64,000 bases of DNA from Candidatus Micrarchaeota archaeon (GCA_021809925.1 JAJZJV010000002.1:7666-71665); one strand, 5' to 3'. Numbered from the stretch's first letter, positions 22,289 to 39,691 are shown. Notes: generated from the letters alone by a model not told the origin. Program-made: numbers and translations.

Positions 22289-22666
22289 TTATCTGGAGCT
22301 CTTCCTTTTTTTTATCTTCTTTGCTTTTTCCAGATCGAGCTTTGGCATGTAGTTCATCAACGACAAAATGTAAAGAAAAGCGATCACAACCAGTCCTGCA
22401 ATGAATGCGGCTATTGTATGGGATATGAATACCATCAATATGAAGAATATTAGGCCCAGTGCAATGTAGAGTCTCTCTCTTAACTCGAATTTGTCCCTGC
22501 TCTTTTTGTATAGAGAATAACATGACGAACATACGACTAGAACATTGTTCTTCTCATTCTTTGTCACATTTCTCTTGAACCACCTTATACCCTTTATGAC
22601 GATATCGTACTCTATTTCTATTCCCTTCTTCTCTTTTCCGCAGACTATGCAATAACTCTTTGACAT
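22289..22666 (-). CDS. Membrane-anchored zinc-ribbon protein (last gene of the cluster)
   Basis: CIVCGKE ... CSSCYSLY (CxxC-x36-CxxC) is followed by two hydrophobic helices and a Lys-rich tail. Its stop codon directly abuts the convergent aminopeptidase stop. Confidence 0.55.
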   Translation of the reverse strand: MSKSYCIVCGKEKKGIEIEYDIVIKGIRWFKRNVTKNEKNNVLVVCSSCYSLYKKSRDKFELRERLYIALGLIFFILMVFISHTIAAFIAGLVVIAFLYILSLMNYMPKLDLEKAKKIKKRKSSR

Positions 22667-22676
22667 TCGATACCAC

Positions 22677-22973
22677 CTATTCTATATCGAGATCAACTAC
22701 CCTTCCCAGAGTACCCCTTATTTTCTCCTCGTCAAGTATGTTCAGCACGCTTGTTATCGCGATATCTTCTATCCCCATACGCCTCAAGACATTGGTTATA
22801 TCTTGCTGCTTGAGCCCCAGCTTTTGAAGCATGCTGGCGAATGATACAACATTCACATGGCGGTGCATCTTATTCATGGAGCTCAAGAGCTCTTCTATGC
22901 TCTTATCGCTTATTCCAAGCTTTGTGAGTATCTTTTTTATATCAATTCTGCTTATTATGAAGGTTTCTCCCAA
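22677..22973 (-). CDS. Small soluble helical-repeat protein
   Basis: Repeated LGISDKSIEELL / LGLKQQDITNVL / MGIEDIAITSVL modules. Related modules occur in the C-terminal tail of the upstream ATPase. Confidence 0.5.
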   Translation of the reverse strand: MGETFIISRIDIKKILTKLGISDKSIEELLSSMNKMHRHVNVVSFASMLQKLGLKQQDITNVLRRMGIEDIAITSVLNILDEEKIRGTLGRVVDLDIE

Positions 22974-22983
22974 TTATAACGCC

Positions 22984-24489
22984 TCATGTTATGAAGGTGA
23001 ATATCCTGGTGATTAGTATATCTGAAATACCTATGCTTCTCAGAAACTCCAGTATGAGATCCTTGTTGACATTATCCCTTATCAGTGCCTGAACCAAAAG
23101 CCGGATATCAACAAGGCCGCTCTTTGCGTCCATCTCCTTAAATACCTTCTCAATTATTCCTGAGCCAAGGTTTATTTCTACCAATTTGGAGTTCATCTCC
23201 ATCTTGCTAAACGTGTATTCCTTTTGTATAGCCGTGTTGTTCAGCTCGTCCTGATTGAGTATCTCTGCAACAGTTATTGTATACATATCCAAAGGTATCT
23301 CTCCTACAACCTTGTCAAGTATGAAAATATCTGGGAATTGAACGCTGGTGTGGAAAGACATGTCTATTGCTGCTTGTCCGACCCCGAACTTGCTTATCTC
23401 TGACCTTATAAACTGCGAGAAGTTAAGCGATCCTTGAAGGTAATTCATGAACTTTTCAAACCTGACCCTAAGCATTATTGTAGTTCCGACATTTGAGAAG
23501 ATCGCTTCGTTTATATCAGTAGGGTTTTGCGATGCTACTATTAGCCCAAACTGGTATTTTCTTCCTTCCCTTACAATCATTACCGCGTCGCTTCTATCAT
23601 CCCCTGCAATCTTCCACGCCTCGTCAAGCACTATTATAGCTTTGAGCCCTTTGGATGCACTCCAACCCTCGGCCCTCATCTTTTCCTTTAAGGTTTGCAA
23701 TATGAACAATGCTGCCATGGCCCTAAACTGTTCATCAGGAAGACCTGAAAGATCTATTGATACAAGGCCAGATGTGGAAAGCTTTCCCAGATCTATTGTG
23801 CTCTTCTTAGCAAAGAAGTCTTCGCCCTCCCTTGAGAATTGCCTTAGCCTATAAATTGCATTTTCTAGCTCTGCTGGATATTGATAGGTGTTTTCCTCAA
23901 GCTTTTCTTCCAGCAACGCAACGACATCTTTTATTGTGGGTGCATCTTTCTTAGGGTCAGGAGGGTTGGCAATGTCGAATCCGGCATTAAGATAGGATTG
24001 CTCTATAGCTTCTGCAGTTAATCTGCGCTGCTCTGGATAATTTGAGATGTCAGTCAATATGTCAAATGAATTCATGATCTGCTTCGTTCTGTCAAGAGGC
24101 TTCATTCCCGAAAGATCCATTATATTTATGAAATCTCCCTTCGCGAGTGATACAACTGTGCCTCCGCTCTGCCTCACCCATGCCTTATACTCACCAGCCC
24201 AATCAATTATTATGGCGTTTGTGTTCCAGATATAGCTTGCGCGTATCAGGAAGGTCTTAATCAGGAAGGACTTTCCAGCACCAGTTATCCCAACTATCGC
24301 AAGATGTGGATTTGTCAGAGATGCAAAAGTCCAAGTGAACGGAACCTTGAATAGTTTTGTTATGCCTATGAATATAGAATCTGTAGGATCGTTTAGCAGG
24401 AACTCGAAAGGAGGCTCTGGGGGCCTGCTGAAGAATGCTCTTTTTGCGAGCTCATTACTCATAACATTTTGGATCCTAAGAAGTGTCAT
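22984..24489 (-). CDS. P-loop ATPase of the VirB4/TrbE/CedB (AAA_10/DUF87-like) type, short form (501 aa)
   Basis: Walker A is NPHLAIVGITGAGKSF and is followed by NAIIIDWAGEY. Walker B is KAIIVLDEAWKI and is followed by REGRKYQFGLIVASQNPTDI. It lacks the long N-terminal domain of the ~800-aa bacterial VirB4. Confidence 0.75.
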   Translation of the reverse strand: MTLLRIQNVMSNELAKRAFFSRPPEPPFEFLLNDPTDSIFIGITKLFKVPFTWTFASLTNPHLAIVGITGAGKSFLIKTFLIRASYIWNTNAIIIDWAGEYKAWVRQSGGTVVSLAKGDFINIMDLSGMKPLDRTKQIMNSFDILTDISNYPEQRRLTAEAIEQSYLNAGFDIANPPDPKKDAPTIKDVVALLEEKLEENTYQYPAELENAIYRLRQFSREGEDFFAKKSTIDLGKLSTSGLVSIDLSGLPDEQFRAMAALFILQTLKEKMRAEGWSASKGLKAIIVLDEAWKIAGDDRSDAVMIVREGRKYQFGLIVASQNPTDINEAIFSNVGTTIMLRVRFEKFMNYLQGSLNFSQFIRSEISKFGVGQAAIDMSFHTSVQFPDIFILDKVVGEIPLDMYTITVAEILNQDELNNTAIQKEYTFSKMEMNSKLVEINLGSGIIEKVFKEMDAKSGLVDIRLLVQALIRDNVNKDLILEFLRSIGISDILITRIFTFIT

Positions 24490-24525
24490 ACTCTCATATA
24501 TCTTATTAGATATTACATATTAATA

Positions 24526-25350
24526 TTATTTCTGTGTCTGGAATATTTTGCTTAACTCTTTCTTTCCTAGCAGCGCATAATTAAATTTATACATATAGTA
24601 AAGCTCCCTCCCAACTATACGCATTATATTGAGGTCAAATGAATTGAAGACTGTCTGGAGTTCGTTTATTTGGTTCTCCATTGAGTCTACAGCTTCCTTC
24701 TCGCTTACGCCTACTGCTGTAGTTTCTATGTACATAAGGCTGTTAACTGGGCGCTCCCCTGCAGATATTCTCTCAATCCTTGTCTGAACTATGCTTATCC
24801 TCCTTTGAAGATCTTCAATTGTCATCTGGTTTGCATTCTGGCTCTTCATCTCTTTTGAGAGCTGGAATTCCAGGAAACCTCTCTGTCCCTCAAGATCGCT
24901 CCTGTAGCTCTGTATGTCCTGCGCCGCAGTTATCACATTGAACCTGAATGGAAAGTCTATGCTCATCAATAGTCTTTCCCATTTCTCAGACGAAGATGCG
25001 AGATTCGCTTCTTCGTTTGCTTCAGGATTTTCTGCGGCAAATATATAGTTGTAGATGTTGGCTGTGAGGTAACCAGTGGCATAATATAGCCCGTTTGTGT
25101 ATTTAATCACAGACTTTTGGTCCTTAGGTATTATGAAGTTCCTGCCAGGAATTATTGTGATCCTTAGCACCGAGGTAAAAAGGGGAAATAGTATGAAGTC
25201 TGCATAGTTTATTGCGAGGTTTATTATTATCGTTAGTATAGCTAGTATTATAACTATTATAGAGAATTCTCCATAGCTGGAAGCAGTGGTCACAAGTGCC
25301 AATGCGAGTAAGGCAGTCACACCCAAGTATACCACATCTTCTATGTCCAT
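24526..25350 (-). CDS. 2-TM anchor plus soluble alpha/beta domain protein (274 aa), paralog A. Candidate VirB3/VirB4-N-terminal-like.
   Basis: Two N-terminal hydrophobic helices, then ...VIKYTNGLYYATGYLTANIY.., a helical segment and ..LMYIETTAVGVSEKEAVDSMENQINELQTVF. It has the same architecture and length as the next gene. Confidence 0.55.
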   Translation of the reverse strand: MDIEDVVYLGVTALLALALVTTASSYGEFSIIVIILAILTIIINLAINYADFILFPLFTSVLRITIIPGRNFIIPKDQKSVIKYTNGLYYATGYLTANIYNYIFAAENPEANEEANLASSSEKWERLLMSIDFPFRFNVITAAQDIQSYRSDLEGQRGFLEFQLSKEMKSQNANQMTIEDLQRRISIVQTRIERISAGERPVNSLMYIETTAVGVSEKEAVDSMENQINELQTVFNSFDLNIMRIVGRELYYMYKFNYALLGKKELSKIFQTQK

Positions 25351-25354
25351 AGTA

Positions 25355-26182
25355 TCACATCCCTTCAGTTCTTGTCTTCATCCTCTCACTTATCGTGCTA
25401 AGTGGTATCCTTGCATCTGGCTCAACGAATAATGCAAGCTCTTCGCCTTTGATTAAGTATGCGGTCACGCCCAATATCGAGCTTATTCCTGAAGCCAACT
25501 CCTCTGCTTGCTGATTAGATAAGCTTACTGCTTCCTCCTCGTTTCCACCAATAGCTGTCACCATTCCAAATGAGACGAGCGTCTGTGACTTGGTCTCGCT
25601 GATGCTGTCGGAAAGGTTCCGCCACATTGTGACCTCGCCTTTTGCTCGGTCCAGTGCTGTTGGATTCTCTACTCTTTTCGCTAGCGCATCGTTATATCTT
25701 CCCTCTGCTTCGTTGAGCTTGGTCTTAATTTTATTAATGTACTCATCTTTGTTTACCATGTACATCTGAGTAGCTATCTTTATAGGAGTCTTTGATAGAG
25801 TTAGTACACGGCCAAAAAGCCTTGAGAAATCTAGCTTCTCCTGGTCGTTCATCTCTGTAGACGATCTGTAGATTGGAATCTTTACAAATGTACTTGCGTA
25901 AACGTCGTCTTCGCTCCTTGTTATTATGGAGGTTCCTGAAGATGCCATTGTAAAAGGATCATCGTTATCCAGTACTATTGCGCCCCCCTTCATCCTGAAT
26001 AATGGACCTAGGAGATATAGGTAATATCTTGTCGAAAATGCCAAGATGTCTATCATAAGTATGATTATCGCAATTATGAACTTAATCGCTGTGCTGATCT
26101 GGAGAGTGCTAGTTATAAGGATGAGAAAGGCGGCAACGCCTACCAAGATTATGAAGATTATGCTTCTAAAGTTGAATGCCAA
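25355..26182 (-). CDS. 2-TM anchor plus soluble alpha/beta domain protein (275 aa), paralog B
   Basis: Two N-terminal helices, then ..IITRSEDDVYASTFVKIPIY.., a helical segment and ..LVSFGMVTAIGGNEEEAVSLSNQQAEELASGI. It is collinear with paralog A. Confidence 0.55.
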   Translation of the reverse strand: MAFNFRSIIFIILVGVAAFLILITSTLQISTAIKFIIAIIILMIDILAFSTRYYLYLLGPLFRMKGGAIVLDNDDPFTMASSGTSIITRSEDDVYASTFVKIPIYRSSTEMNDQEKLDFSRLFGRVLTLSKTPIKIATQMYMVNKDEYINKIKTKLNEAEGRYNDALAKRVENPTALDRAKGEVTMWRNLSDSISETKSQTLVSFGMVTAIGGNEEEAVSLSNQQAEELASGISSILGVTAYLIKGEELALFVEPDARIPLSTISERMKTRTEGM

Positions 26183-26223: not shown

Positions 26224-27330
26224 TTATATGTTTGCTGTCAGCCTTCTTGAGGTCTGTGCCATCCCTCCTATCAGATTTGATATTGTTAGTATAGAAAAGT
26301 ATGTTATTGCAAGGTTCAATGCCGGGAAGAAGAGCACCGATATCCAGAAAGAGCTCATCGCTGTTTTGACATCTGCTATTTGAGTCACTAGAGGGGAGCT
26401 TGGTGAGACAGTCCCTGGGGGGAAGTTGCAGACCAAGCTACCCGTTGTTGGATTCTGTGAGCAATCGCTAAACTTGTTAAGGTTAACTGCAGCATTGTTA
26501 AGGCTCGTTATTGAGCTCTGGCTCGTAAAGTAAAAAGAGATAGAAAAGAGCATTGGCATTATTAGGTAGAACCCTATAGCAACTGCAACCATCATCCCAC
26601 CCATGCTTCTTGTCGGCAATAACGCACGAAATATTATTCCAGGTATGAGAAATACAGGTATTGCAGCGTACATCAAGAACAATATCAGATAATATTCTAT
26701 ATAGAGCACCATCAGCCCGTCTATTAGCAGTATTGCTATGGTTACAGAGGGATTGACCAAAAAAAACAATAGAGGATATTGGAGTGGCTTTGGTATATGC
26801 CATTCATGCTGATTTGGAAAATAAATAAGTATGTCAAGTTTCAATGTAGAAACATAATATGCATCGTTCTCTATATAAAAGAGATTTGAGAGTACATTGT
26901 CAGTAGAATTGATAGTCTGGCTGATATAGCTTAGAGAGGTGTTATACGGGTTTATCGGGCCTGTGACAATGCTTGGAAGGATGCCGAACATGGTGGAAGA
27001 GATGTAAAGGAAAAATGTCACTATGAGCGTTGTTGCTATAGCCTCATAGAATTCCCCAATGCCATAAGTTCTTACCCTATCGCTATTGAATATTACCCCA
27101 ACCAGGAATATTAGTGTGGCTATAGTAAATGAGAATAATATTGCAACAACTGCGATAGGAGCCCAGTTGTTCCAACTTTTCACTACTGACTGATTTATCT
27201 GACTGCAATACCACGGTGCCAGGGCGTTGACAGTGCCGGCTGTGCTGCAGTAGCTAAACAAGTCTGCGTGCACATTGTTTAGCAGCATTGTTGTAAAGAG
27301 AATTGCAGCAATAATCATGCTTTTCTTCAT
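26224..27330 (-). CDS. Polytopic membrane protein, member 6 of a six-gene tandem paralog family (VirB6-like topology)
   Basis: Sec-type signal peptide MKKSMIIAAILFTTMLLNNVHA. Topology is TM1-TM2, a large Cys/Asn-rich loop, then 4-5 more TMs. The family motif is degenerate here: FRALLPTRSMGGMMVAVAIGFYLIMP. Confidence 0.65.
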   Translation of the reverse strand: MKKSMIIAAILFTTMLLNNVHADLFSYCSTAGTVNALAPWYCSQINQSVVKSWNNWAPIAVVAILFSFTIATLIFLVGVIFNSDRVRTYGIGEFYEAIATTLIVTFFLYISSTMFGILPSIVTGPINPYNTSLSYISQTINSTDNVLSNLFYIENDAYYVSTLKLDILIYFPNQHEWHIPKPLQYPLLFFLVNPSVTIAILLIDGLMVLYIEYYLILFLMYAAIPVFLIPGIIFRALLPTRSMGGMMVAVAIGFYLIMPMLFSISFYFTSQSSITSLNNAAVNLNKFSDCSQNPTTGSLVCNFPPGTVSPSSPLVTQIADVKTAMSSFWISVLFFPALNLAITYFSILTISNLIGGMAQTSRRLTANI

Positions 27331-27338
27331 TTTTGCAC

Positions 27339-28430
27339 CTAAACCAAAGTTGTTAATATTGATAAGAAATCAAGCCTTTCGCCTATTGCTTGCGAGAAAT
27401 CCAATACGAATGTATCTATTATTACAAAATTAAGTAAGGGTATAAATGTTAGCCCAACACCTATGAACCCAGCATATATTAGAATCCCTTCCTTAAACGA
27501 TTCATATAGTATGATTAGCAGAGCTACAAGAGATGGAGACACTATGTAGGATGTTGCCCAAGAAGGCAAAATGCTTGATATGGTAGAGCTTGCTATTATA
27601 CTAGCATAAGATGCGAAGACTGTTCCTAGGAGTACAGGTATGTTAATGCCGCTGTGTGCTATTCCATAATCAATAACACCATATGTTATTCCTGCTAGAA
27701 TTGGGTATATTATTCCAATTCCGAATGCCAGCGCGATCATCGCTCCACCAAATGTCCTGGTTATCCCAAACGATCGTGATATGAGCCCAATAGCCATAAG
27801 TATTGAGAATATGAGTACGGATGAACTAAGTATGAGGAGTTGCACCTGATTTAGGATTATGGTCAAAAATACAAGTCCATATAAAGGGCCGTAGAATGTT
27901 ACTACTGGATTTAGATTCTCAGGAGACAATGATATAGTATATTGTATGCTTACGCTTCCAGGGTGAATGGAGATAACTCTTTGTGGACTTATGGAGGCCA
28001 ATATTGATACATAGTATACCAGAAGATTAAGTTCCCCAACATTATGGTTGAATTGTTTAAGGTTGCATATGCTTATCACATAGAAGTTATTAACTGCAGG
28101 ATTATCGCAACTTCCAGTGACCATCCCGAAATTTGAGAAGATCTGGTGCGGATCTGCTATTATTATTGAGGTGGAAAATGCGGCAAAGATTAATATTAAA
28201 ACTATTGACAGGAGCAATTCGTATATCTTTATTCGTATCCAGTTGCGTATATCACTTCTTCCCATCAGTGGGCTTAATGCATAGACTATTCCAAAGATTG
28301 AGATTATTGCAATAACCGCAGATATAACCACCGGAAACCAGGAAGTATATGGAGACGTCAGGAAATTGCATATGCTACCGAGAGGACTGATGCCTCCCGT
28401 GCATCCACTTACTAAAAGACTTGGAATCAT
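27339..28430 (-). CDS. Polytopic membrane protein, family member 5
   Basis: Family motif ISRSFGITRTFGGAMIALAFGIGIIYP with the same topology. There is a 1-nt overlap with the upstream gene. Confidence 0.65.
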   Translation of the reverse strand: MIPSLLVSGCTGGISPLGSICNFLTSPYTSWFPVVISAVIAIISIFGIVYALSPLMGRSDIRNWIRIKIYELLLSIVLILIFAAFSTSIIIADPHQIFSNFGMVTGSCDNPAVNNFYVISICNLKQFNHNVGELNLLVYYVSILASISPQRVISIHPGSVSIQYTISLSPENLNPVVTFYGPLYGLVFLTIILNQVQLLILSSSVLIFSILMAIGLISRSFGITRTFGGAMIALAFGIGIIYPILAGITYGVIDYGIAHSGINIPVLLGTVFASYASIIASSTISSILPSWATSYIVSPSLVALLIILYESFKEGILIYAGFIGVGLTFIPLLNFVIIDTFVLDFSQAIGERLDFLSILTTLV

Positions 28431-29644
28431 TATATCAGCTTGTTGAAGAGCGTCTTGCTCTTGAGGGATGGCGACCCTAATATATCTCCTAATTGCTCCA
28501 TCAGATCAAAAGATATTATAAACGCTATTATTATGCCTAACAGTTGCAATCCAATAAAAGTTATGTTATTTACAAACTGGTCAGCGTTGGCACTAAGCGC
28601 ACCGCCGAAATTCAATGGAATAAACGTTTTTATAAGAGTGTAAAGTGCATTCGCCCCAATTTTAGAATTGGTAGTGAAACTTGATAGCAAATTATTAGAA
28701 TTGCATAAGGTCGTTAATGCTGAGCTCGGCGAGGTGCCCGCGCAGAGTATATTGGTGCTTGATTGAAGCGTTGAAGAGAGTGAGATAAACGGATAAAGCA
28801 CTGCAGGAAATATTATATAGAACGAGATAAATAATGCAATCATAGACCCGCCTGCTGCTCTTGTCCATGGAAATGATCTCAGGAGAAGACCAAGATATAG
28901 GAATAAGGGAAATAAGAAGTAAATAAGCAGCAGGAGTATGATAACTGCAAAACTCAGTGTTACTACAAGGGAAAATGAGCTGCTTTCTAGTATTATCATC
29001 TTTTGTATTACGTCTGTTCCTTCTAAAGGCCTGAAGCTGAAGCCAGGATTAATATATGCAGGTAAATAAGATACTCCGCCGCCATTTGCAGTCAGGTCTA
29101 TCTGAATGCTCTGCATAAGCTGGAGCGGCAATATAAATAATGAAAGACCAATAATGTTCTGCAATGAGTTGTCTATCGTGCCATAATAGCCATTGCATAT
29201 GCTTACATACATGGCATTCGTGCTTGTCACGGGGGCGACGTTGTAAGATTGAAGACCAACGGAAGTAATTGATGACAAGAATGTCATTATGGTGTCAGTC
29301 CCACTTATCCCCCCCACTATGAGAATCACTATAAGAAGATTCGCAAAACTCTCCATGTATTCAGACTTTACGAAAGCTTTCAATTTCTCTATACCAAAAG
29401 CCATCCCCACCATATAAATAATTCCTAAGACAGTTAGGACGGTAAGTATGACAAGCATTGTAATGCTGATCATCTCTGAGTAGGTTGAGCCCCTTGACAA
29501 AGAGGTATTAATAAAAGTATTAGAGCTGCTAAAGAGGTTGTTGCATGACGGAAAGAGCGCAGTGCTTATGAAGCCGGCCGCATGGGATAGGTTAGGGATT
29601 AATGCAAGGCATATGAGAAGCACAAGATAAAAATATTTTTTCAT
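28430..29644 (-). CDS. Polytopic membrane protein, family member 4
   Basis: Signal peptide MKKYFYLVLLICLALIPNLSHA. Family motif LLLRSFPWTRAAGGSMIALFISFYIIFP. Confidence 0.65.
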   Translation of the reverse strand: MKKYFYLVLLICLALIPNLSHAAGFISTALFPSCNNLFSSSNTFINTSLSRGSTYSEMISITMLVILTVLTVLGIIYMVGMAFGIEKLKAFVKSEYMESFANLLIVILIVGGISGTDTIMTFLSSITSVGLQSYNVAPVTSTNAMYVSICNGYYGTIDNSLQNIIGLSLFILPLQLMQSIQIDLTANGGGVSYLPAYINPGFSFRPLEGTDVIQKMIILESSSFSLVVTLSFAVIILLLLIYFLFPLFLYLGLLLRSFPWTRAAGGSMIALFISFYIIFPAVLYPFISLSSTLQSSTNILCAGTSPSSALTTLCNSNNLLSSFTTNSKIGANALYTLIKTFIPLNFGGALSANADQFVNNITFIGLQLLGIIIAFIISFDLMEQLGDILGSPSLKSKTLFNKLI

Positions 29645-29648
29645 GTTA

Positions 29649-31127
29649 TCACAATAGCCTGCTTAATCCGAGCAGAGATGTATTACCGCCAAACAATGAG
29701 GACAGACCCATTATTGACGTTATTATTATAAGTAAGTTCAATATTGGAAGTATAAATCCGATTACAGAATCTATTCCATAAACATGTAGTATTGCAAGTA
29801 GCGAGTTTAGGGCTTCTGTGGGGTGACAATTAAAGTAACCATATGGAGGCATTGCTGGAGAGATCCCTCCAAGATGGGATGAGCCGAATGAAGAAATGAC
29901 TGCGAGCACCGCTCCGCCGCCAGTAACTGCGCCAGATAGAGGGAAGGTGTAGTAAGCAACTAATTTCAGCTCTGCTGAGAGGAGTCCTGTTGAGCCGGGA
30001 AGGCCCGATGGCCAGCATCCATTATAATTTATGGCTTCTGCAAGGTTTGGTATTACAAAGAAATTTGGAGTATAATGAGGACAGGTCTTTGGATCCCCGA
30101 TAATGCAGGTATTATCATTGAATGGTTTATAGTACAGGGACATTGAAGGAATTAAACTCGCACCCACAGGTTTGATAGATGGACTTGTAAGGGAGGTATA
30201 TTCAAAAATAAAGAATATTGGATATATTATAACCATTACTATGCTTATGGCCATTAATAAGCCGCCAACCTTTCTTGTCAAGAAAGATGAGTGCAGTATT
30301 ATGCCACCTGCCAAGAGATATGGCCAGATATATATGAACAGAATAATAAACAGGAGAATGAATGAGGAGAGATAAAATAATAAGTATGCCTGTGCTTCTA
30401 TCATCTTCGTGCCTCTCAGCATCATATAATAACCTACAAATGGTTCATAGGTATATACACTCTCAAATGCAAATCCCTCTCTTGGGATTATGCAGCTCAA
30501 TGGCACTAGTGGTTCGCATATGCCTACTCTGGCATCGAGCTCTCGCAGGAATGCCATATAGTTCTCAAATATATAAAGGGAGTTAAGATTTGCAGCAGTT
30601 TGATTAGTTATGTTTGCATTAAGTATGTATGCAGCCGATAATCCATAATCTATATTAGTTGCTATGTGGGGGTTTGGAGAAGCAGCTGCCGCTTGTGCAT
30701 TAGGTATCTCGATGTTGCAGATAGTATTTGTTGGATATCCGCTTAAAATGTCGAGTGGGGAGCCTTTGAAATTATTAATCGAGGATGGTACAAGATAAGT
30801 ATTACATATGTTTGCTAATGAGCTCGGAGGGATTGAATAAAATGTCGATAGAGAGGATGTTCCGAATGTATATAAAATGCCTACAAGTATTACAACGATT
30901 ACTGTCAGGCCTATTATCTGGCCGAATTCAGTTATTGCATTTGCTTTTATCCGCTTATTTCCCAACACTGCGCCGAGTAGGTAGTACATGCTGACCAGAG
31001 AGGCACTTGCCATTATTGCGGCCATTATAACAGGGAGCCAATTCTGGAATTCAGAGTATGGGGTGAATATGCTTTGGGCTAACACCACAGAAGGAATGAA
31101 TGCGGATAGGAGTAGTATGCTTTTCAT
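29649..31127 (-). CDS. Polytopic membrane protein, family member 3 (largest, 492 aa)
   Basis: Signal peptide MKSILLLSAFIPSVVLA. Family motif ILHSSFLTRKVGGLLMAISIVMVIIYP. The extracytoplasmic loop is expanded. Confidence 0.65.
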   Translation of the reverse strand: MKSILLLSAFIPSVVLAQSIFTPYSEFQNWLPVIMAAIMASASLVSMYYLLGAVLGNKRIKANAITEFGQIIGLTVIVVILVGILYTFGTSSLSTFYSIPPSSLANICNTYLVPSSINNFKGSPLDILSGYPTNTICNIEIPNAQAAAASPNPHIATNIDYGLSAAYILNANITNQTAANLNSLYIFENYMAFLRELDARVGICEPLVPLSCIIPREGFAFESVYTYEPFVGYYMMLRGTKMIEAQAYLLFYLSSFILLFIILFIYIWPYLLAGGIILHSSFLTRKVGGLLMAISIVMVIIYPIFFIFEYTSLTSPSIKPVGASLIPSMSLYYKPFNDNTCIIGDPKTCPHYTPNFFVIPNLAEAINYNGCWPSGLPGSTGLLSAELKLVAYYTFPLSGAVTGGGAVLAVISSFGSSHLGGISPAMPPYGYFNCHPTEALNSLLAILHVYGIDSVIGFILPILNLLIIITSIMGLSSLFGGNTSLLGLSRLL

Positions 31128-31132
31128 TTCTA

Positions 31133-32281
31133 TTAACCCCAGAAAGGACCTATCCCCATTATTCTGGATACTGAGCTGAGGCCTCCTGCAAGGCCTTGGA
31201 CAAAACCCAACGTTATTGCAAAGTCCAATCCAAGAAGCACAATTCCCTGGAATAAGTATTCTGCAACGCTGAAACTTGCTTGCTGCATTGCTATTGGCAT
31301 TGTGAATAGAGAAAGTATGCTAAGTGGCGAACTCGCTCCGAAAATGTTGGCGAAGAAGGATATAGAACCGCTATAACCTGTTGTTTGCCAACCCCCGTTG
31401 GTCGAGAACAAGAAACTTGTAGGGAGAGATGTAAGAGTATCTGTCTTAATGTATGTTGAGTAGTATGGATTACATATTGTCGTATTTTGACAATACATCC
31501 AATTTATTATCGCACTGTTCAAGACTATTGTCAATGGAAATACAAAATAGAGGCCTATGCTTATTGCTAAAAGAATGTTTGCTGATTCCCTCAACCTTGG
31601 ACCTGTGAAAGAGAGTGATCTCAGTATTATAGAGATTGGGATCAATACGGCTAATGCTGCTGAAGCGATGAGCGGAAGTAGGATATATATTAAAAGAAGC
31701 ATGCCGAAGGTTGCAGTTACAAGGCTCATCATTGAACCAACATATATGTCTGCGTATGAGTAGAAAAGATTTGGCAGATTAGCAGAGAAAGAAAGTTTGC
31801 TGCCTCGGCTTGACATTGCCGCGAGGTTCTGAATTAAGAAATCCTGGGTAAGAATATCAGTAGCAGTACCTGCCAATAACACATTTATTGTATCTGCAAA
31901 TAATGTTGTTGTTAGTTTCTGACCCTGCACGAAGAGAAGAGAAGAGATATAATTCTCTGAAAATTGTATAGGATCATAGGTCTTGGTTGAGCTGTAGGTT
32001 AATGATGATACAACAGTGCAGGAAAATGTTGAGAAAGTTATCAATAGTATTATTATGAGTATGCTTACTATACCTTCAACTGCCTCGTATCTGACAATTC
32101 CTCTTAATTTTTCCCTGTTTATGAATGGAAGGATACCGCTCAGAGAATAAAGAAGAGATCCAATCATCATCGTTGCCATTACTACGAGAATGCTGATGCT
32201 TATCCAATCATTCCTGTTTATCGTGCCAAAATTGCAGCTTTGCTGAAAAATGTTCGGTGTCAGTAAGGCCAAGAGCATCAT
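31133..32281 (-). CDS. Polytopic membrane protein, family member 2
   Basis: Family motif variant IILRSLSFTGPRLRESANILLAISIGLYFVFP. There is a 4-nt start/stop overlap with the upstream gene. Confidence 0.6.
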   Translation of the reverse strand: MMLLALLTPNIFQQSCNFGTINRNDWISISILVVMATMMIGSLLYSLSGILPFINREKLRGIVRYEAVEGIVSILIIILLITFSTFSCTVVSSLTYSSTKTYDPIQFSENYISSLLFVQGQKLTTTLFADTINVLLAGTATDILTQDFLIQNLAAMSSRGSKLSFSANLPNLFYSYADIYVGSMMSLVTATFGMLLLIYILLPLIASAALAVLIPISIILRSLSFTGPRLRESANILLAISIGLYFVFPLTIVLNSAIINWMYCQNTTICNPYYSTYIKTDTLTSLPTSFLFSTNGGWQTTGYSGSISFFANIFGASSPLSILSLFTMPIAMQQASFSVAEYLFQGIVLLGLDFAITLGFVQGLAGGLSSVSRIMGIGPFWG

Positions 32282-33492
32282 ACCAACCTCAGCTTTGATC
32301 CTAAGCTTGTAACGACACCGGTTGAGCTGCCGAGCATTCTGGCTATTGTATCCATTAGAGGTATTGCTATGGCTAGATCAAGTATAAATAACACAAATTG
32401 GGCTACCAGATTAACCGTATGGTAAACTAGATCATTTATTGTTGGATATATGGAGTAGAGTGCAGATAAGCCAATAACTATTGAGGTGGTTGATATGCCC
32501 ATATTGGTTAAAACAGTTGTATATCCATTCACAACTGAACATAGGATGCCTGAGGTGCATGATGGGGAGGATGGCGTGGTTGGACCATGGAAAGCGGTGT
32601 TGAGTACATTTGTCACAGGGGCATTAAGAATCACGAGAAGAGAGGGATAGATTATTGAGATGCCTATGCCTATTGCGATTAGCACGCCCCCAACGCCTCG
32701 AACGAATGGAAATGATCTTAGTATTAAGCCTATTGGGATTACTAAAAGCAGACCAATTTTCACAATATATGGCAATAGTGCCATCTCGCTCCCTATTATC
32801 ACAGATATTGGAAATAGAACGATTACTATAGTATCAGATAATATTGATTCGTAATTCCTTACAGTAATGCTATATGGTGTAAGCATCTCGTTTGTTAGAC
32901 CAGCCGGTGTGAATGCGACACCAGTTATCAAATATGGTAGTGGAATGCCATCAGGATAAGGAATTGGCGGAGTCGGGTCATAGTATTGTATAGTTAAAGA
33001 AGTTAATGCACCTATGCCGATACTCAACCCACCTACAGCATCGTAAGCGCAGGCTAGGTTGTTGTCGACCCCAGTTAAGTATATCTCGCCAGAATTTACC
33101 AACCCTGCCAAGTTTGATGAATACGAGCTTGAAGGCGTTTGTCCACTTATTATCACAGCCATGCTGCTCATGAATAGCAATATAGAAAATATGCTTGCTA
33201 TCAAGATCATTGTTTTCGCTATCTCGTAGTATTCTCTTTCTATCCATCCCCTAAGCCCAGCGCCGGAAAAGATCTTGCTTATTATGTAGCCTATGGCAAC
33301 TACATCTATTGAGAGAGTTAGTGCTATCAGTGATACAGCTATTGCTTCATTATATACAGATCCAGGTATTGTGATTGTTGTTTTAATAGGTGATCTTAAT
33401 GAGCAAGAAGTAGCAGCAGATACCAGACTTGGCAGTAAGGCGATTAGCACCATAAAAATGCAGGCTTTGTTAAGAGCCATCTCATCATACAA
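32278..33492 (-). CDS. Polytopic membrane protein, family member 1
   Basis: Signal peptide MALNKACIFMVLIALLPSLVSA, so the start may be the Met at 33480. Family motif LILRSFPFVRGVGGVLIAIGIGISIIYP. Confidence 0.65.
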   Translation of the reverse strand: MYDEMALNKACIFMVLIALLPSLVSAATSCSLRSPIKTTITIPGSVYNEAIAVSLIALTLSIDVVAIGYIISKIFSGAGLRGWIEREYYEIAKTMILIASIFSILLFMSSMAVIISGQTPSSSYSSNLAGLVNSGEIYLTGVDNNLACAYDAVGGLSIGIGALTSLTIQYYDPTPPIPYPDGIPLPYLITGVAFTPAGLTNEMLTPYSITVRNYESILSDTIVIVLFPISVIIGSEMALLPYIVKIGLLLVIPIGLILRSFPFVRGVGGVLIAIGIGISIIYPSLLVILNAPVTNVLNTAFHGPTTPSSPSCTSGILCSVVNGYTTVLTNMGISTTSIVIGLSALYSIYPTINDLVYHTVNLVAQFVLFILDLAIAIPLMDTIARMLGSSTGVVTSLGSKLRLV

Positions 33493-33537: not shown

Positions 33538-34320
33538 TCAATGTCTTAGCAGAGGGAATCTTTTCATATACGCTTCTGCCTGAAGTATCACAAAATAAGG
33601 CATTATCAGCAAAGAAGTTATTATAAGAACAACATATCTTGATAGGAGAGTACCTGTTATGCCTATAGCAAGTACGTCAAGTATCGATATAGATAGGGTA
33701 GATAATAGAAGCCAGCCGACAAAGTATACTGGCTCCCGGTATATTAGCTTTGTGCTGTCCTTTATCGAACGGAAGACTCGCTTATCGTCAACAACTATTG
33801 CGCTTGGAACGTAGAATATGATTAGGAATGCAATAAATCCTACAATGGAAGTTAAAACTCCGCCAAGCGAAGGAAGGTAGTAGCTTGCTATGATATTGGT
33901 AGCTACCACCACCAAAGCATATGCCAGCAGAACCACAAATACCCTTGAGATGTACTTTTCTATATCTCTAAGCACACTTCCAGCTATTTTTGTGTGTGTA
34001 CGCTTAGATTTGACTATTAGACTTATTGCAACGAAAGCAAAACTCAAGAAGAGAAGAGAGAAGAACACTGAGAATATTATAACGGATATGCTTATTGGGT
34101 TCGTGTTAATGAATATGCTTGCGCTTCTTAGGAATATGCCACCAGCAGTCATGTAGGTAGGAAGTGGGGCAAATAAAGGTATCGCCACAGCAATTATGAA
34201 GGGTATAGAAAACAGGAGCACTAGCTTTAAATTCTGAAAGTATGTCTCTAGGGAATCAGTGAGGACATTTCCCATTATTGCACCATTTGATATACTGCGT
34301 CTCAATAAATAAAAAGCCAT
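33538..34320 (-). CDS. Polytopic membrane protein (260 aa), unknown function
   Basis: At least 6 hydrophobic segments. There is a 1-nt spacer to the upstream gene. No motif was recognised. Confidence 0.5.
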   Translation of the reverse strand: MAFYLLRRSISNGAIMGNVLTDSLETYFQNLKLVLLFSIPFIIAVAIPLFAPLPTYMTAGGIFLRSASIFINTNPISISVIIFSVFFSLLFLSFAFVAISLIVKSKRTHTKIAGSVLRDIEKYISRVFVVLLAYALVVVATNIIASYYLPSLGGVLTSIVGFIAFLIIFYVPSAIVVDDKRVFRSIKDSTKLIYREPVYFVGWLLLSTLSISILDVLAIGITGTLLSRYVVLIITSLLIMPYFVILQAEAYMKRFPLLRH

Positions 34321-34321
34321 A

Positions 34322-36223
34322 CTATTGGCTGCTTTTGTTGTAGACAGGATTGCTTACATAATAATAATCATTGTTGTATAAGATTGCAGAAAATGGCCCA
34401 GTTGTGTATGGTCCAACCATGTATTTAATCCTAAGAGGATACGTGTCGCTGCTCTTATTTAAAATTATTTTATTAATATTTATAGTGCATTCTAAAGAGA
34501 CGCATGTGTTGCTTTTGTTTATGATACTCTCATTTATAAACCCGTAAAAACCAAATGTGCTGTTGCTGACCCCAATAGTAGAAACATAAATAGTATTGTT
34601 TGTCAGATTATTGTAACTAATTGTGGCATTGTAGTAAATGTAATTTCCATTTATTGCCAGATCTTGGTTCTTTAGTGATATATTGAAGTTGTGAGTATAT
34701 TGGTTGTGTGATCTGATTATAATTGCAGTTGACGCTAGGATAATAAATAACATAGTAATAGCCAAAGCAGGCGTTGCATATCTTCCGATTCTCTCTTTTA
34801 CTATCCCAGGTCCTTTGTTTACGTTCTTTGAGTATAAGGCAAAGACAAAGAAGAAGGAGAACATGCTAAAGTAGGAGATTAGTGCGTGAGATAGAAGTAA
34901 GAAAGGAACCATGCTAAATAGAGGTATTAGCTCTTTCTTATTTATATAAATTAAGAGTATTGCTAAGGCAATTATAGACAAATAGAAGAGTTTTGAGAAT
35001 ACAAGCATGGTGATATGGTAACTGGTCAGTAACGAGAATCCAAGGATTGCTGCGCCGCTTGGCATAATTAATGAACTTACCGGAGCGAATACAGAACTCC
35101 AGTATATTCCCGGATTTATTATTATAACATAGGAGTTTATCAGGAAGAAGACTGCCAAGGCCCCAAGTATATTAAACGCTCCTCTCTTTAATCCCTGATT
35201 ATTAATCATGTATATTATAAAGAATATCACGGGAATCCATAATTCCTCTTGTATCGCGAGTGCTATGCCTAGAAGGATAAATGCATATTTTTTGTCCAGC
35301 TTTGAGTAGGTGATAAGCAAAAGCGTGAGCATTATATATACGGGCAAGGATGCTACAAACGCTATTGAAATTATAAAAAATAATATTAGTGAATATCTGG
35401 GGGAGAGATTCTTCTCATCATGCAGAAGGATTGTTGCTGTAATTATAAGCAGGAATAAGAATATTGCAGCTTCGAGACTCATGTCAATATGGGAAAGGTT
35501 GTGAAGAGTCATGCTAGAGATTAGATAAAATGGCGCTGAGATCAAAGGATACAGCGCAGGATATTCCAGAGAACCCATTATTTTATTGTTTGTTGTGATT
35601 GTCACTCCTATAGTACTGACATTGCCTAGTAGAAAATTTGAGAAGGAAAGGGCATATGGATTAGTGCTATTCAGCAAGGACTTTATGCTTAAGAAGGATA
35701 TCACGGTCTCGTCGTCTACAGAGTACCTTGTAAAGACATGGCCAGATAAGAAATAGAATAGCAATATAACCAATATTAATGCATAAAGAATTAAGGCAAT
35801 TTTGTAGCTTCTTTTGTGAAGGAAATACGCAGCAAATGTAGCAATGAAAAGCAATGGGAGCAATATAACTAGATATGTGCCTATGTTCTCTAAGAGATAA
35901 AGTAGGGTTTGTATAAGACCGGAAGAAATGCTGTTGCCTAGAACATATAGGTAATATATGAAAAGTAGGATTAATATAAGGAATAAGATATTTAGTATAA
36001 GCTTGGTTGCTTTCTTACTTATGCTTCTTCCTTTTGTGTTCCCTTGTTTATTATCACGTAATGAGATAAGAGATGCAACTAAGTAGATCAATGAAATGGA
36101 TATGTATAGCGAGGCTACAAACCTTGCAATTGGCACTAGGAATAGTGAATAATAAGATAAAGCAATTGTGATGAGGAAGAAGAATAATATTATAAATATT
36201 TGAGATTTAGAATTAAGTCGCAT
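34322..36223 (-). CDS. Large polytopic membrane protein with a sequon-rich C-terminal ectodomain. Possible GT-C-fold glycosyltransferase.
   Basis: About 480 aa of TM helices including LEYPALYPLISAPFY. A ~120-aa tail follows with many N-x-S/T sequons (NISL, NATI, NLTN, NNTI, NSTF, NESI, NKSN, NKSS). The GT-C call is weak and pattern-level only. Confidence 0.45.
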   Translation of the reverse strand: MRLNSKSQIFIILFFFLITIALSYYSLFLVPIARFVASLYISISLIYLVASLISLRDNKQGNTKGRSISKKATKLILNILFLILILLFIYYLYVLGNSISSGLIQTLLYLLENIGTYLVILLPLLFIATFAAYFLHKRSYKIALILYALILVILLFYFLSGHVFTRYSVDDETVISFLSIKSLLNSTNPYALSFSNFLLGNVSTIGVTITTNNKIMGSLEYPALYPLISAPFYLISSMTLHNLSHIDMSLEAAIFLFLLIITATILLHDEKNLSPRYSLILFFIISIAFVASLPVYIMLTLLLITYSKLDKKYAFILLGIALAIQEELWIPVIFFIIYMINNQGLKRGAFNILGALAVFFLINSYVIIINPGIYWSSVFAPVSSLIMPSGAAILGFSLLTSYHITMLVFSKLFYLSIIALAILLIYINKKELIPLFSMVPFLLLSHALISYFSMFSFFFVFALYSKNVNKGPGIVKERIGRYATPALAITMLFIILASTAIIIRSHNQYTHNFNISLKNQDLAINGNYIYYNATISYNNLTNNTIYVSTIGVSNSTFGFYGFINESIINKSNTCVSLECTININKIILNKSSDTYPLRIKYMVGPYTTGPFSAILYNNDYYYVSNPVYNKSSQ

Positions 36224-36296: not shown

Positions 36297-36671
36297 TCAG
36301 CAACCTGAGATACTGCTTATTGAGCTTCCGAAGCCGGCAACCGTTGTTACGATCCATGGTGCTGCCAATACGAGTATTAACCCTATTATGCCACCCATAA
36401 TCATACCAAGAGACCATCCTTGTAGACCGCTTCTCAAATTACCTGCAGCAGGCAGGAAGTGAGCCGCAGCATAAAGAACGCCGCCTACTACGAACAATAC
36501 TAGCGCGAATATGCCTACGACAGTTCTTACAGTATTTACTATATTACATAGATTGCTAGTGAGAAGATTTACTGAACTCTGTGCAGACAGTGACAGGCCT
36601 AGTAAATTCGCTACTACGCCACCTATGAAGACTAGATATATTGCTAGTCTTATTTTTTTGCTTATCTCCAT
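36297..36671 (-). CDS. VirB2/TrbC-like pilin candidate (124-aa precursor)
   Basis: Signal peptide is MEISKKIRLAIYLVFIGGVVANLLGLSLSA. It is followed by QSSVNLLTSNLCNIVNTVRTVVGIFALVLFVVGGVLYAAA (helix 1). Next come the short loop HFLPAAGNLRSGLQGWS and LGMIMGGIIGLILVLAAPWIVTTVAGF (helix 2), with a Ser-rich C-terminus ending in Cys. This is the two-helix hairpin layout of VirB2-type pilins. Confidence 0.55.
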   Translation of the reverse strand: MEISKKIRLAIYLVFIGGVVANLLGLSLSAQSSVNLLTSNLCNIVNTVRTVVGIFALVLFVVGGVLYAAAHFLPAAGNLRSGLQGWSLGMIMGGIIGLILVLAAPWIVTTVAGFGSSISSISGC

Positions 36672-36763: not shown

Positions 36764-38950
36764 CTAATTTTGGCTTAATTTGAAGAAAGTAATGTTCCTA
36801 AAGGCAAGTGTGAACGAATCCTGATTGCTATTATTAATTATGATAGTCAGATTATTATATCCGGATCTTACTGGGATTCTAGCAGTGTATTTGGTAGATA
36901 GGACATTTACTTTTTGATTGGAGGTTAGGATACCGTTGTTGTATATTGATATTGTGGAGTTATCCAGGGAAAGGATATCGGAGTTCATGGTTATCAGGCC
37001 ATTTGTAGGAGAGTATAGGGATATTGAGCTTCCGTTTGCCACCCACCAAAATCCAGACTCGTTAAGACAATTGCTGCAGACAGCGAATTCCGGAGCCCAT
37101 TCTCCGGATATGAATGCAGTGATGTTTGAGGGTAGTTGTTGAGTGTGTATATTGTCTGGAACCTTGAATAGAATTGTAGAGTTGCCTGTGTATATTGGGC
37201 TGCCTAACATATTTGAGAGCGTCGATGTCAGGTTCTTAAGTACCGTTGCATCATATAAATTACTGAGGACTGAGATATAACTGATGTTGTATTTTGAGAG
37301 AAGGATAATTGTTGGTTTTGTAAGATTCTCTCTTATTGGATAGGAACCATAGTCAGATAAGTTTTCGAGAGAGTATGTGGAAACGAGCGGGATGGAATAT
37401 ATATAAAGGTCTTGGAGAGGTGTGCTTCTGGTAGTGTATCCACCAATTATTGGCATATTAAAGCCTGTTTGATAGTACATACCAATAGCTGACGGGTAAG
37501 ATTGATCCGGAGCGGATGGTAAGAATAAGACAGATGAGTTGATAGTGTGATTTATTAGAGAATATGCCTTCGGTATTGCTGTATTCGTATAAAAAGTATT
37601 TGTAAAAGATGAAGCTAACGGGATTCCTGCACATTCGAGCAAGATTATTGAGGAGATAATTGCAGTATATATTATCTTTTTTTTCACGGAATTGACTTTT
37701 GATAAAAGACTTTTGAAACCAAATGCTGCAAGGATTGCTAGGCAAAGAGAAAACATTATATCGAATCTGCCAGGCTCTCTTATGAGATTAAATATAGGCA
37801 TGATTCGATAAAGGATATATGGGCCAGGTATCATGGTTACATTGCCATTTATATGTATTAGTGGGCCTAGAGAGAGCATTGCAAATATAATTCCGATAGA
37901 TGCCCATACCATAGTATTTTTGAACTTCTTTGATTTAATATCGGAGTATATGCCAAATATAGATAAGAGCATAACAGAGTATCCAATATAAGAAACACCT
38001 TCCCAATAGAAACCATATGGCATGAGTGTATGGTAATATTTACTAGCCAGCTGATTGAAGATTCCATTAAAATAACTTGGAAGGAAAAAAGAAAGCAAAT
38101 CATTGCTCCATGCTTCATTATCACCAAGGCTTGAGGAAGTTGCTGCAAGAGAAAGTGAATTGCTATGTATTATGCCGTTTATTAAGGGAAAGAGGAATGG
38201 GAGCCCGATTAAAAAGGTCAGGATTAGTATTTCAAAGATTATAGATATTGTTTTGAGGTTAATTTGCTTTCTTGAAGAGCTGAAGTATGTAAAGTAGCAG
38301 AATAGCAGCACGAAAAGGAATAGCATTATGCCTTGTTCTATGTCACCCATAAAAGATGCTAGAACTAGAGAAAATGCTGCCAGCACGATGTATCGCGGCT
38401 TTCGTCTCTTTATTGAGAGAAGGAAAGATAGGATAAATAACGGGATCCATTCTGTTGAAGTAAAATTCAAGAATATGAATGAGTGGGCTATGTTAACTGC
38501 GCTAAAGGAGAAGATTACGCCTGCGATGAAGGATGCGTATGTATTTTCAGTCAGATACATGGCAAGCAGATACATAAAGAATGCGGAGAGGAGAAAGCCC
38601 AAGATAAATATTACATTATATGAGAAAGTAAGGCTTATTTGCTGGAATGGAAAAGAAATTAGGCTTGCTATTGGTGAGTCTAAATAATTATAAGAAAAAT
38701 TTGCTCCGTATGGATAATACAAGAGATTTGTTGTATATGGAGAGTTGTGAAGAGTGAATATGGAATAACCAGGCCACCAAAGAAACCATAAGAACTGATA
38801 CGGATCTCCAGTGCCGTTTATGTGGGCAAATACATGCATTATATTTGCAAATATGGGCCATGACACGAGCATCGTTAGCAATAAGTAAAGAGTTAGTACG
38901 AGCACTTCTTTCTTTGTAATCTTAGGAAATATGTATTGCATCGTCTTCAC
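36764..38950 (-). CDS. Very large polytopic membrane protein (728 aa). Putative GT-C-fold glycosyltransferase (YfhO/PMT-like), not AglB.
   Basis: About 13 TM helices with an acidic first-loop motif NGTGDPYQFLWFLWWPG and REPGRFD. The ~260-aa C-terminal ectodomain is full of N-x-S/T sequons. No WWDYG motif is present. Confidence 0.5.
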   Translation of the reverse strand: MKTMQYIFPKITKKEVLVLTLYLLLTMLVSWPIFANIMHVFAHINGTGDPYQFLWFLWWPGYSIFTLHNSPYTTNLLYYPYGANFSYNYLDSPIASLISFPFQQISLTFSYNVIFILGFLLSAFFMYLLAMYLTENTYASFIAGVIFSFSAVNIAHSFIFLNFTSTEWIPLFILSFLLSIKRRKPRYIVLAAFSLVLASFMGDIEQGIMLFLFVLLFCYFTYFSSSRKQINLKTISIIFEILILTFLIGLPFLFPLINGIIHSNSLSLAATSSSLGDNEAWSNDLLSFFLPSYFNGIFNQLASKYYHTLMPYGFYWEGVSYIGYSVMLLSIFGIYSDIKSKKFKNTMVWASIGIIFAMLSLGPLIHINGNVTMIPGPYILYRIMPIFNLIREPGRFDIMFSLCLAILAAFGFKSLLSKVNSVKKKIIYTAIISSIILLECAGIPLASSFTNTFYTNTAIPKAYSLINHTINSSVLFLPSAPDQSYPSAIGMYYQTGFNMPIIGGYTTRSTPLQDLYIYSIPLVSTYSLENLSDYGSYPIRENLTKPTIILLSKYNISYISVLSNLYDATVLKNLTSTLSNMLGSPIYTGNSTILFKVPDNIHTQQLPSNITAFISGEWAPEFAVCSNCLNESGFWWVANGSSISLYSPTNGLITMNSDILSLDNSTISIYNNGILTSNQKVNVLSTKYTARIPVRSGYNNLTIIINNSNQDSFTLAFRNITFFKLSQN

Positions 38951-39669: not shown

Positions 39670-39691
39670 AGTACCATCAACATGCACTGAA

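Follow-up and report, generated by a model that had tools for sequence, protein, structure and literature searches.

A putative split VirB4-type motor in a chromosomal, type IV secretion-like gene cluster of Micrarchaeota

Three adjacent genes in the genome of a Candidatus Micrarchaeota archaeon probably belong to the cytoplasmic-membrane core of a chromosomal machine that resembles the type IV secretion systems (T4SSs), and in particular their Ced and Ted derivatives, but in which the VirB4 motor is split among separate proteins. They lie at positions 22984 to 26182 of a 64,000 nucleotide stretch of DNA (GCA_021809925.1 JAJZJV010000002.1:7666-71665, called "the window" here), all on the minus strand, and encode a P-loop ATPase of the HerA/FtsK superfamily (22984–24489, 501 amino acids [aa]), which appears to be the equivalent of the C-terminal motor domain (CTD) of VirB4, and two membrane-anchored proteins of almost identical size, which we call B (24526–25350, 274 aa) and C (25355–26182, 275 aa, with a TTG start). 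B adjoins the ATPase gene, and B and C have identical predicted architectures, a hairpin of two transmembrane (TM) helices followed by a cytoplasmic domain like that of the T4SS protein TrsD. A preliminary description of the window had proposed that B and C are a duplicated and detached module combining VirB3 with the N-terminal domain (NTD) of VirB4; its three open reading frames (ORFs) are present with the sizes and positions just given. The gaps between the genes are short (36 bp between ATPase and B, 4 bp between B and C), and the three co-oriented genes form the distal end of a long co-directional array. In public collections all three proteins are labelled only "hypothetical protein" or "ATP-binding protein".

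The ATPase

The ATPase is short and begins just before its Walker A motif, as had been described: the motif, GITGAGKS, occupies residues 66–73 and is preceded by about 65 residues. It has Pfam matches to DUF87 (E 3e-17), AAA_10 and the TraG P-loop domain, its residues 57–328 match the structure of a VirB4 CTD (PDB 4AG5, E 2.7e-9), and hhalign aligns it with residues 448–703 only of TrwK, the VirB4 protein of plasmid R388 (probability 84%, E 7e-6). Since the TrwK NTD comprises residues 15–400 (PMC9259494), the ATPase is, to judge by its sequence, a CTD-only VirB4-like protein. The Pfam domain that corresponds to TrwK 15–400 (PF03135, CagE_TrbE_VirB N-terminal) was not found in its polypeptide in a Pfam scan. 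The NCBIfam models for CedB, CedD, CD1110 VirB4 and TraC match it at about 62–66 bits through their C-terminal halves only, and VirB4-type models, which cover the ATPase as one long stretch, reach it only from model positions 393–513 onward. Its scores (45.9–66.2 bits) lie below all of the curated cut-offs of these models (325–700 for TIGR00929, TraC, CD1110 and CedB). The C-terminal tail of the protein carries helix-turn-helix-like repeats. Homologues in the same Micrarchaeota group are 70–76% identical to it and 499–505 aa long, and a tblastn search of plasmids with the ATPase returned at least 5000 records, 4694 of which are conjugative (TraC, CD1110 VirB4 and DUF87 proteins of Bacillales).

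Proteins B and C

The four sequence blocks quoted in the preliminary description are present in B and C and are paired with one another by hhalign, but the collinearity of the two proteins, which had been thought directly visible, emerges only from profiles. Profiles of the B and C families (38 and 36 sequences, respectively) align over 250 collinear columns with a probability of 95% and an E of 3.3e-8, and by this comparison B and C are true paralogues. Pairwise BLASTP detects the late block only (27 aa, E 0.019), so the two sequences by themselves do not make the paralogy evident. Both families are constant in length (272 matches with 50–59% identity for B, and 53 matches with 41–54% identity for C), and B is closer than C to a single-copy form present in other Micrarchaeota (below).

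AlphaFold2 models of the two proteins (pLDDT 68 for B and 78.6 for C) have the same order of elements: the TM hairpin (approximately residues 5–62), a β-hairpin, a helix, a strand, a helical hairpin (146–196), a β element and a helix. The soluble part is thereby predicted to be a four-stranded α/β domain with a long inserted helical hairpin, and the two N-terminal TM helices (residues 3–48 in the model of B and 5–62 in that of C) followed by a mixed α/β domain agree with the architecture first proposed for both proteins. Basic residues follow the second TM helix in both, so the soluble domain should be cytoplasmic.

The VirB3 part of the original proposal fares less well. The hairpin does share the topology of VirB3 and PrgI, with two TM helices, cytoplasmic termini and a gene adjoining that of the ATPase. 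These features, with adjacency to virB4 and a mass of 10–15 kDa, are those by which VirB3/PrgI proteins are recognized (PMC12857230), and B and C, at 274 and 275 aa, are too large. The hairpin has no detectable similarity to TrwM, PrgI or TrsC by profile alignment (hhalign E 0.11–0.21) and no Pfam PrgI or VirB3 match. A "VirB3" assignment is thus one of topology and gene position, and homology to VirB3 is not supported.

Relationship of B and C to TrsD and the VirB4 N-terminus

When the B and C models were compared with 350,542 PDB chains by Foldseek, TrwK/VirB4 was the nearest neighbour of both. TrwK/VirB4 chains make up 9 of the 15 top matches of C (best E 0.031, probability 0.96) and occupy ranks 1–3 and 5 for B (probability 0.91–0.92, root-mean-square deviation 5.4–5.8 Å over 159–176 columns). 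The CTD-only VirB4 structure 4AG5 and the chains of HerA, FtsK and TrwB are absent from the top 50 of both searches, and we therefore infer that the match is to the N-terminal part specific to VirB4, the aligned TrwK range not being given by Foldseek.

A link between sequence families was found through plasmids. The best plasmid relatives of the ATPase are encoded by T4SS clusters on Bacillales megaplasmids, in which the gene order is pilin, PrgI (VirB3), a "hypothetical" protein of about 330 aa with a single TM anchor, and a DUF87 ATPase of about 640 aa. The 330 aa protein, whose gene lies between prgI and the ATPase gene (L098 5279–6277, L100 1764–2765, L101 1779–2777, L102 1805–2791 and L103 1854–2774), matches CD1110 positions 2–175 (E 1e-4) and Mbov_0397 positions 97–278 (E 1.7e-4), and the neighbouring DUF87 ATPase begins at CD1110 position 185. 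By these matches it looks like an unannotated, membrane-anchored analogue of TrsD. A gene of similar size on a Clostridium botulinum plasmid (L104 1239–2225) adjoins a full-length VirB4 gene.

A joint profile of B and C matches this Bacillales family with an hhalign E of 8e-4, and an independent profile of the single-copy form matches it with an E of 1.1e-3. With a merged Micrarchaeota profile (75 sequences) the match has a probability of 72% and an E of 3.4e-5 over 161 columns; it rises to 90% and 1.6e-6 against the Bacillales family together with TrsD, and is 89.5% and 2e-6 over 172 columns when the first half of the VirB4 NTD is included as well. Reversed templates gave E values of 0.008–0.37 and unrelated membrane and ATPase profiles 0.15–0.9. 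The signal is carried by the β/α segments that flank the coiled-coil hairpin, which by itself gives an E of 0.34. TrsD has been described as remotely homologous to the N-terminus of VirB4 (PMC12102498), and our own comparison agrees with this: the TrsD family matches TrwK 30–201 (hhalign probability 88%, E 2.8e-6) and leaves the second half of the NTD unmatched. These comparisons support the view that the soluble domain of B and C is TrsD-like and corresponds to the first 190 or so residues of VirB4, which make up the first half of its NTD. Because direct hhalign comparisons of B and C with TrsD and the VirB4 NTD (the targets for the latter were TrwK and an alignment of 13 VirB4 NTDs) stay at E 0.03–0.15 (0.03 for TrsD), whereas the bridge through the Bacillales family and TrsD gives 3e-5 to 2e-6, the proposed homology to VirB4 is a transitive one. 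The detached VirB4 N-terminal module of the preliminary description is in this way supported for the first half of the NTD.

Two other relationships were considered and discarded. A local match of B and C to TrwK 286–361 (E 0.03–0.24), which would have made the second half of the NTD their counterpart, was dropped once the TrsD-like bridge had mapped to the first half, and an internal duplication of the VirB4 NTD as the source of the two paralogues was not detected (E 0.25). Scans of B, C and the membrane paralogues described below against Pfam, NCBIfam, PADLOC and PHROGs gave coiled-coil noise only, and the NCBIfam TrsD model (NF041427) matched neither B nor C at E ≤ 1; pSK41 TrsD itself scores 227.6 bits with this model.

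B and C could in principle be some other T4SS scaffold protein, of the VirB8, PrgL or TraM type or like CedA2, rather than the equivalent of VirB3 plus the VirB4 NTD, since T4SSs of monoderm bacteria have several small membrane proteins encoded beside virB4 (PMC12857230), and CedA2 has two TM segments (PMC9905601). We give this idea hardly any weight, as the models lack an NTF2-like fold and the Foldseek matches include no structure of VirB8, PrgL or TraM, the distribution of charges points to a cytoplasmic location for the domain, unlike the extracytoplasmic domains of VirB8, and the profiles match TrsD-like proteins instead.

Conservation in Micrarchaeota

A scan of 185,579 species genomes with a pattern taken from the ATPase alignment, which detects only sequences bearing two short motifs and so does not imply absence elsewhere, found 415 relatives, and the loci of the best 80 of these, all from Micrarchaeota, were surveyed. 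A gene of the bc family, which comprises B, C and the single-copy form, lies immediately upstream of the ATPase gene in 77 of the 80 loci in a survey with hidden Markov models (HMMs), two of the three exceptions being at contig ends, and the same adjacency is present in the window and in the Micrarchaeota loci L001 and L002. This conservation of the pair, together with the 70–76% identity of the ATPase within the window's group, points to a core function. The 204 bc-family members found among 1.84 billion representative proteins all stand alone and are about 236–283 aa long. Two longer bc matches, P0395 (466 aa) and P0351 (366 aa), were considered as possible fusions but are chimeras of fragments of bc and of a membrane-protein family discussed below, probably frameshift or assembly artefacts; they indicate that the two families are adjacent in further genomes.

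The Micrarchaeota loci are of three types. Class I, that of the window, has four to six paralogous membrane protein genes, C, B, an ATPase of about 500 aa and a gene for a 98 aa protein. Class II has at least one pilin gene, a single bc gene and an ATPase of about 523 aa, and class III has a pilin gene, one membrane protein with the motif LR.F..TRR.GG, a single bc protein of about 250 aa and an ATPase of 370–465 aa. The duplication of B and C that had been noted is thus real but confined to one locus group, and because only class I has it, both this duplication and the up to six-fold membrane protein expansion appear to be clade-specific elaborations of a pilin-bc-ATPase core. The class II ATPase, about 20 aa longer, seems to carry extra copies of a "GI(S/E)D..I" motif. 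Class III loci often have, a few genes downstream, a second P-loop protein of about 754–761 aa (L002 14102–16366, L020 near 9194 and L021 near 8022) with the Walker A motif GLPGSGKT, which scores only 17–21 bits with the ATPase HMM and has no counterpart in the window cluster; it could be a coupling protein or a CedD-like second motor.

This distribution also bears on whether the cluster might be an integrated plasmid or integrative conjugative element, with B and C being ordinary transfer proteins of that element. Its plasmid relatives are indeed conjugation ATPases, and VirB4-like genes are present on archaeal conjugative plasmids (PMC9905601). On the other hand, the gene order is common to 80 Micrarchaeota species genomes, the ATPase is well conserved within the window's group, and the flanking genes are housekeeping genes both in the window (aminopeptidase, topoisomerase I and a peroxiredoxin-like protein) and in L002 (TFIIB, proteasome and Topo VI genes); moreover, no integrase, relaxase or coupling protein gene adjoins the cluster within the window, and no break in composition was detected across it. 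Synteny throughout the phylum and flanking housekeeping genes make a mobile-element origin very improbable in our view.

Pilin and membrane protein genes

Upstream of C are six tandem minus-strand genes (26224–33492) for polytopic membrane proteins that are paralogues of one another: 26224–27330 (368 aa), 27339–28430 (363 aa), 28430–29644 (404 aa), 29649–31127 (492 aa), 31133–32281 (382 aa) and 32278–33492 (404 aa). In alignment they share the motif LRSF..TR..GG.MIA..IG..IIYP, they are 21–24% identical to the first copy, and their order is conserved in L001. They have signal-peptide-like N-termini and variable extracytoplasmic loops rich in serine, threonine, asparagine and cysteine. None has a Pfam match. 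From their topology and gene order they are candidates for channel components or for components in the position of VirB6. Tandem VirB6 paralogues occur in the Rickettsiales, and the expansion here resembles those arrays, although homology to VirB6 could not be demonstrated.

Farther upstream is a candidate pilin gene of the VirB2/TrbC type (36297–36671, minus strand, 124 aa), whose product has a signal peptide followed by two hydrophobic helices. Its best Pfam matches are below threshold (T4SS_pilin, 1.7e-3 and 18.8 bits against a cut-off of 26.6; TrbC/VirB2, 5.5e-3 and 17.3 bits). The profile of its family, however, matches TrwL/VirB2 with a probability of 86% and an E of 4.8e-6 (it does not match TrsB or the Bacillales pilin), and 24 members of the family adjoin bc genes or genes of the membrane paralogue family in Micrarchaeota loci. 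In the class II loci L091 (3735–4966), L043, L060 and L078 one to three tandem VirB2-like pilin genes lie directly upstream of the bc-ATPase pair, which suggests that some Micrarchaeota have multiple pilin isoforms.

Several findings weigh against a split VirB4 motor. B and C have no sequence match in Pfam or NCBIfam, and their family HMMs none among all PDB sequences; their direct comparisons with TrsD and the VirB4 NTD are at noise level; and the Bacillales family is in turn linked only modestly to the VirB4 N-terminus (E 1e-4 to 2.5e-3). The structural resemblance to VirB4 holds insofar as TrwK is the nearest PDB neighbour of both models, but the Foldseek E values of 0.03–0.26 are not significant, TM-scores are about 0.3, and confidence in the model of B is only moderate. 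There is no counterpart of the second half of the VirB4 NTD, and a bc-ATPase fusion, for which the preliminary description had suggested a survey, occurs neither among the 204 bc-family members nor among the listed ATPase homologues. The membrane paralogues show no similarity to VirB6 (hhalign E 0.2–0.8 against TrwI, pSK41 TrbL/TrsF, CD1112 and a 1015 aa Bacillales protein). Finally, HerA, DndH and mad8 models score the ATPase at 60.9–76 bits, about equal to the VirB4-type models, and in the search of PDB sequences HerA structures match it as well as VirB4 does.

These points would fit a different explanation, in which B and C are lineage-specific adaptors unrelated to VirB4 or TrsD that serve a HerA/FtsK-type pump outside any T4SS (in DNA handling, defence or envelope assembly), their resemblances to VirB4 being convergent or due to chance. 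Because the ATPase is equidistant from the HerA-type models and the key links are modest, we allow this explanation a small chance, but consider it unlikely overall. The TrsD-like profile match survives the reversed and unrelated controls, and the nearest PDB neighbour of B and C is the very protein whose N-terminal half the ATPase lacks. VirB2-like pilin genes are linked to the bc-ATPase pair, and the plasmid relatives of the ATPase are overwhelmingly conjugation ATPases. There is no HAS-barrel and no NurA, Sir2 or nuclease partner, and, in contrast to a defence island, the cluster is syntenic and part of the core gene set. A HerA-type pump with unrelated adaptors would leave the pilin genes, the TrwK neighbours and the TrsD-like match unexplained.

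Other genes of the cluster

The array reads, in the direction of transcription, a 260 aa membrane protein, the six polytopic paralogues, C, B, the ATPase, the 98 aa protein and a 125 aa protein. The 98 aa protein (22677–22973, minus strand), whose gene follows that of the ATPase directly, is a homologue of the ATPase's C-terminal tail and matches the ATPase HMM at 24–37 bits in the window and about 30 other loci; its gene position is kept in L001 (12376–12675). It has repeats of the short, helix-turn-helix-like "GI(S/E)D..I" motif. The last conserved gene of the cluster (22289–22666, minus strand) encodes the 125 aa protein, with a zinc ribbon and a TM segment (weak Zn_ribbon_15 and DUF1673 matches), and a 118 aa gene has the same position in L001. 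At the other end, the 260 aa polytopic membrane protein (33538–34320, minus strand) heads the paralogue array and has a 243 aa positional equivalent in L001.

Between this gene and the pilin gene is one for a 633 aa polytopic membrane protein (34322–36223, minus strand), whose membership in the system is uncertain and whose positional counterpart in L001 carries DUF2079. Together with a 728 aa protein gene (36764–38950, minus strand) it flanks the pilin gene; both products are polytopic and have many N-x-S/T sequons, and these large proteins may have a link to envelope or pilin glycosylation. Beyond the 728 aa gene are ORFs of 236 aa (38977–39687) and 302 aa (39692–40600), which by eye resemble a glycosyltransferase and an AAA-type ATPase.

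A model of the machine

If the split-motor interpretation is correct, the 501 aa ATPase alone would form a hexameric RecA-like motor ring, the hairpins of B and C would tether this ring to the membrane, and their TrsD-like domains would dock on its N-terminal face. In R388 the NTD attaches VirB4 to the membrane and pairs its subunits, with VirB3 wrapped around the NTD (PMC9259494, PMC12857230); B and C might assume these roles of the VirB4 NTD and VirB3, and a B-C heterodimer may imitate the way in which the NTD pairs "central" with "outside" VirB4 subunits. The ATPase could then power the extraction and polymerization of the VirB2-like pilin, the passage of a substrate through the polytopic proteins encoded upstream, or both. 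The docking, the stoichiometry, the channel role of the six paralogues and the nature of the substrate (Ced-like DNA import or exchange with the host) are conjectural parts of this scheme.

A broader version can be put forward only tentatively, and we regard it as possible rather than likely: that this is a domesticated T4SS-like nanomachine found throughout the Micrarchaeota, a DPANN phylum, with VirB4 split between an ATPase reduced to the CTD and one or two membrane-anchored TrsD-like subunits, that it is the archaeal counterpart of the TrsD-containing T4SS on which Patescibacteria depend as epibionts, that it serves uptake or exchange of DNA, nucleotides or other material in contact with a host, and that the B-C heterodimer and the six paralogues make an asymmetric translocon without precedent among described T4SSs.

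Comparison with known systems

Detached homologues of the VirB4 N-terminus (TrsD) and domesticated archaeal T4SS derivatives (Ced and Ted) are both already known. Plasmids pGO1 and pSK41 (MPF_FATA) have, like the Micrarchaeota, a separate homologue of the VirB4 N-terminus (TrsD) encoded directly upstream of a shortened DUF87 ATPase (TrsE); the pSK41 order is trsB (pilin), trsC, trsD, trsE, and TrsE starts at CD1110 position 183. B and C differ from TrsD in having their own two-helix hairpin, in being duplicated in one Micrarchaeota clade and in their archaeal host, and the Micrarchaeota ATPase is truncated much further than TrsE, the second half of the NTD (approximately CD1110 185–390) being absent as well. 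Of the relatives detected, the one nearest to the B and C soluble domain is the protein of the Bacillales megaplasmid clusters, which is likewise membrane-anchored and encoded between a VirB3-like gene and the ATPase gene. The Bacillales protein, on the other hand, has one TM segment, is accompanied by a separate PrgI, is about 60 aa longer than B and C, and is plasmid-borne and bacterial, and its ATPase keeps the second half of the NTD. Other gene orders for comparison are prgH(B6)-prgI(B3)-prgJ(B4) and that of MPF_FA systems, where virB4 is preceded by two VirB3-like genes (PMC12857230).

The order of modules (TM hairpin, NTD, CTD) is that of TrwM/TrwK in R388 and of the VirB3-VirB4 fusions of IncX plasmids, but in the Micrarchaeota the break falls between the NTD-like piece and the CTD rather than between VirB3 and VirB4, and no more than about half of the NTD has an equivalent. 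The Ced (Sulfolobales) and Ted (Thermoproteales) systems are similar in being chromosomal, relaxase-free archaeal T4SS derivatives; their parts are a pilin like VirB2, a polytopic membrane protein and an ATPase like VirB4, and they import DNA (PMC9905601). CedB is the top NCBIfam match of the ATPase, yet at 66 bits against a cut-off of 700, and unlike the Micrarchaeota protein it keeps an N-terminal region of about 250 aa in the same polypeptide; no counterpart of B or C has been described for Ced or Ted. In the literature that we searched we found no description of a system of this kind across the Micrarchaeota or DPANN archaea, of a TrsD-like domain fused to a membrane hairpin, of an ATPase from which the NTD is wholly gone, or of a B/C duplication accompanied by six tandem membrane paralogues.

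If our interpretation holds, these loci would be a third, structurally distinct archaeal branch of conjugation-derived machines after Ced and Ted, in a phylum of obligate symbionts. The N-terminal region of VirB4 would then be separable at the NTD/CTD boundary, fusable to a hairpin and duplicable, a natural "domain dissection" of the motor that suggests a hypothesis for TrsD itself, as a membrane anchor and pairing module of the ATPase ring. The in silico evidence is of moderate strength, but the system should interest specialists in T4SSs and in DPANN archaea. The most abundant T4SS component of the Patescibacteria, likewise small episymbionts, is TrsD, which has been reported as essential there (PMC12102498). 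Their TrsD-VirB4 pairs have a detached N-terminal homologue directly upstream of a shortened VirB4-like ATPase, as do the Micrarchaeota. Patescibacteria and DPANN archaea, both ultrasmall episymbionts, would each have retained a TrsD-type T4SS that lacks a relaxase, and this parallel makes the question of what such systems transport a testable one in Micrarchaeota co-cultures.

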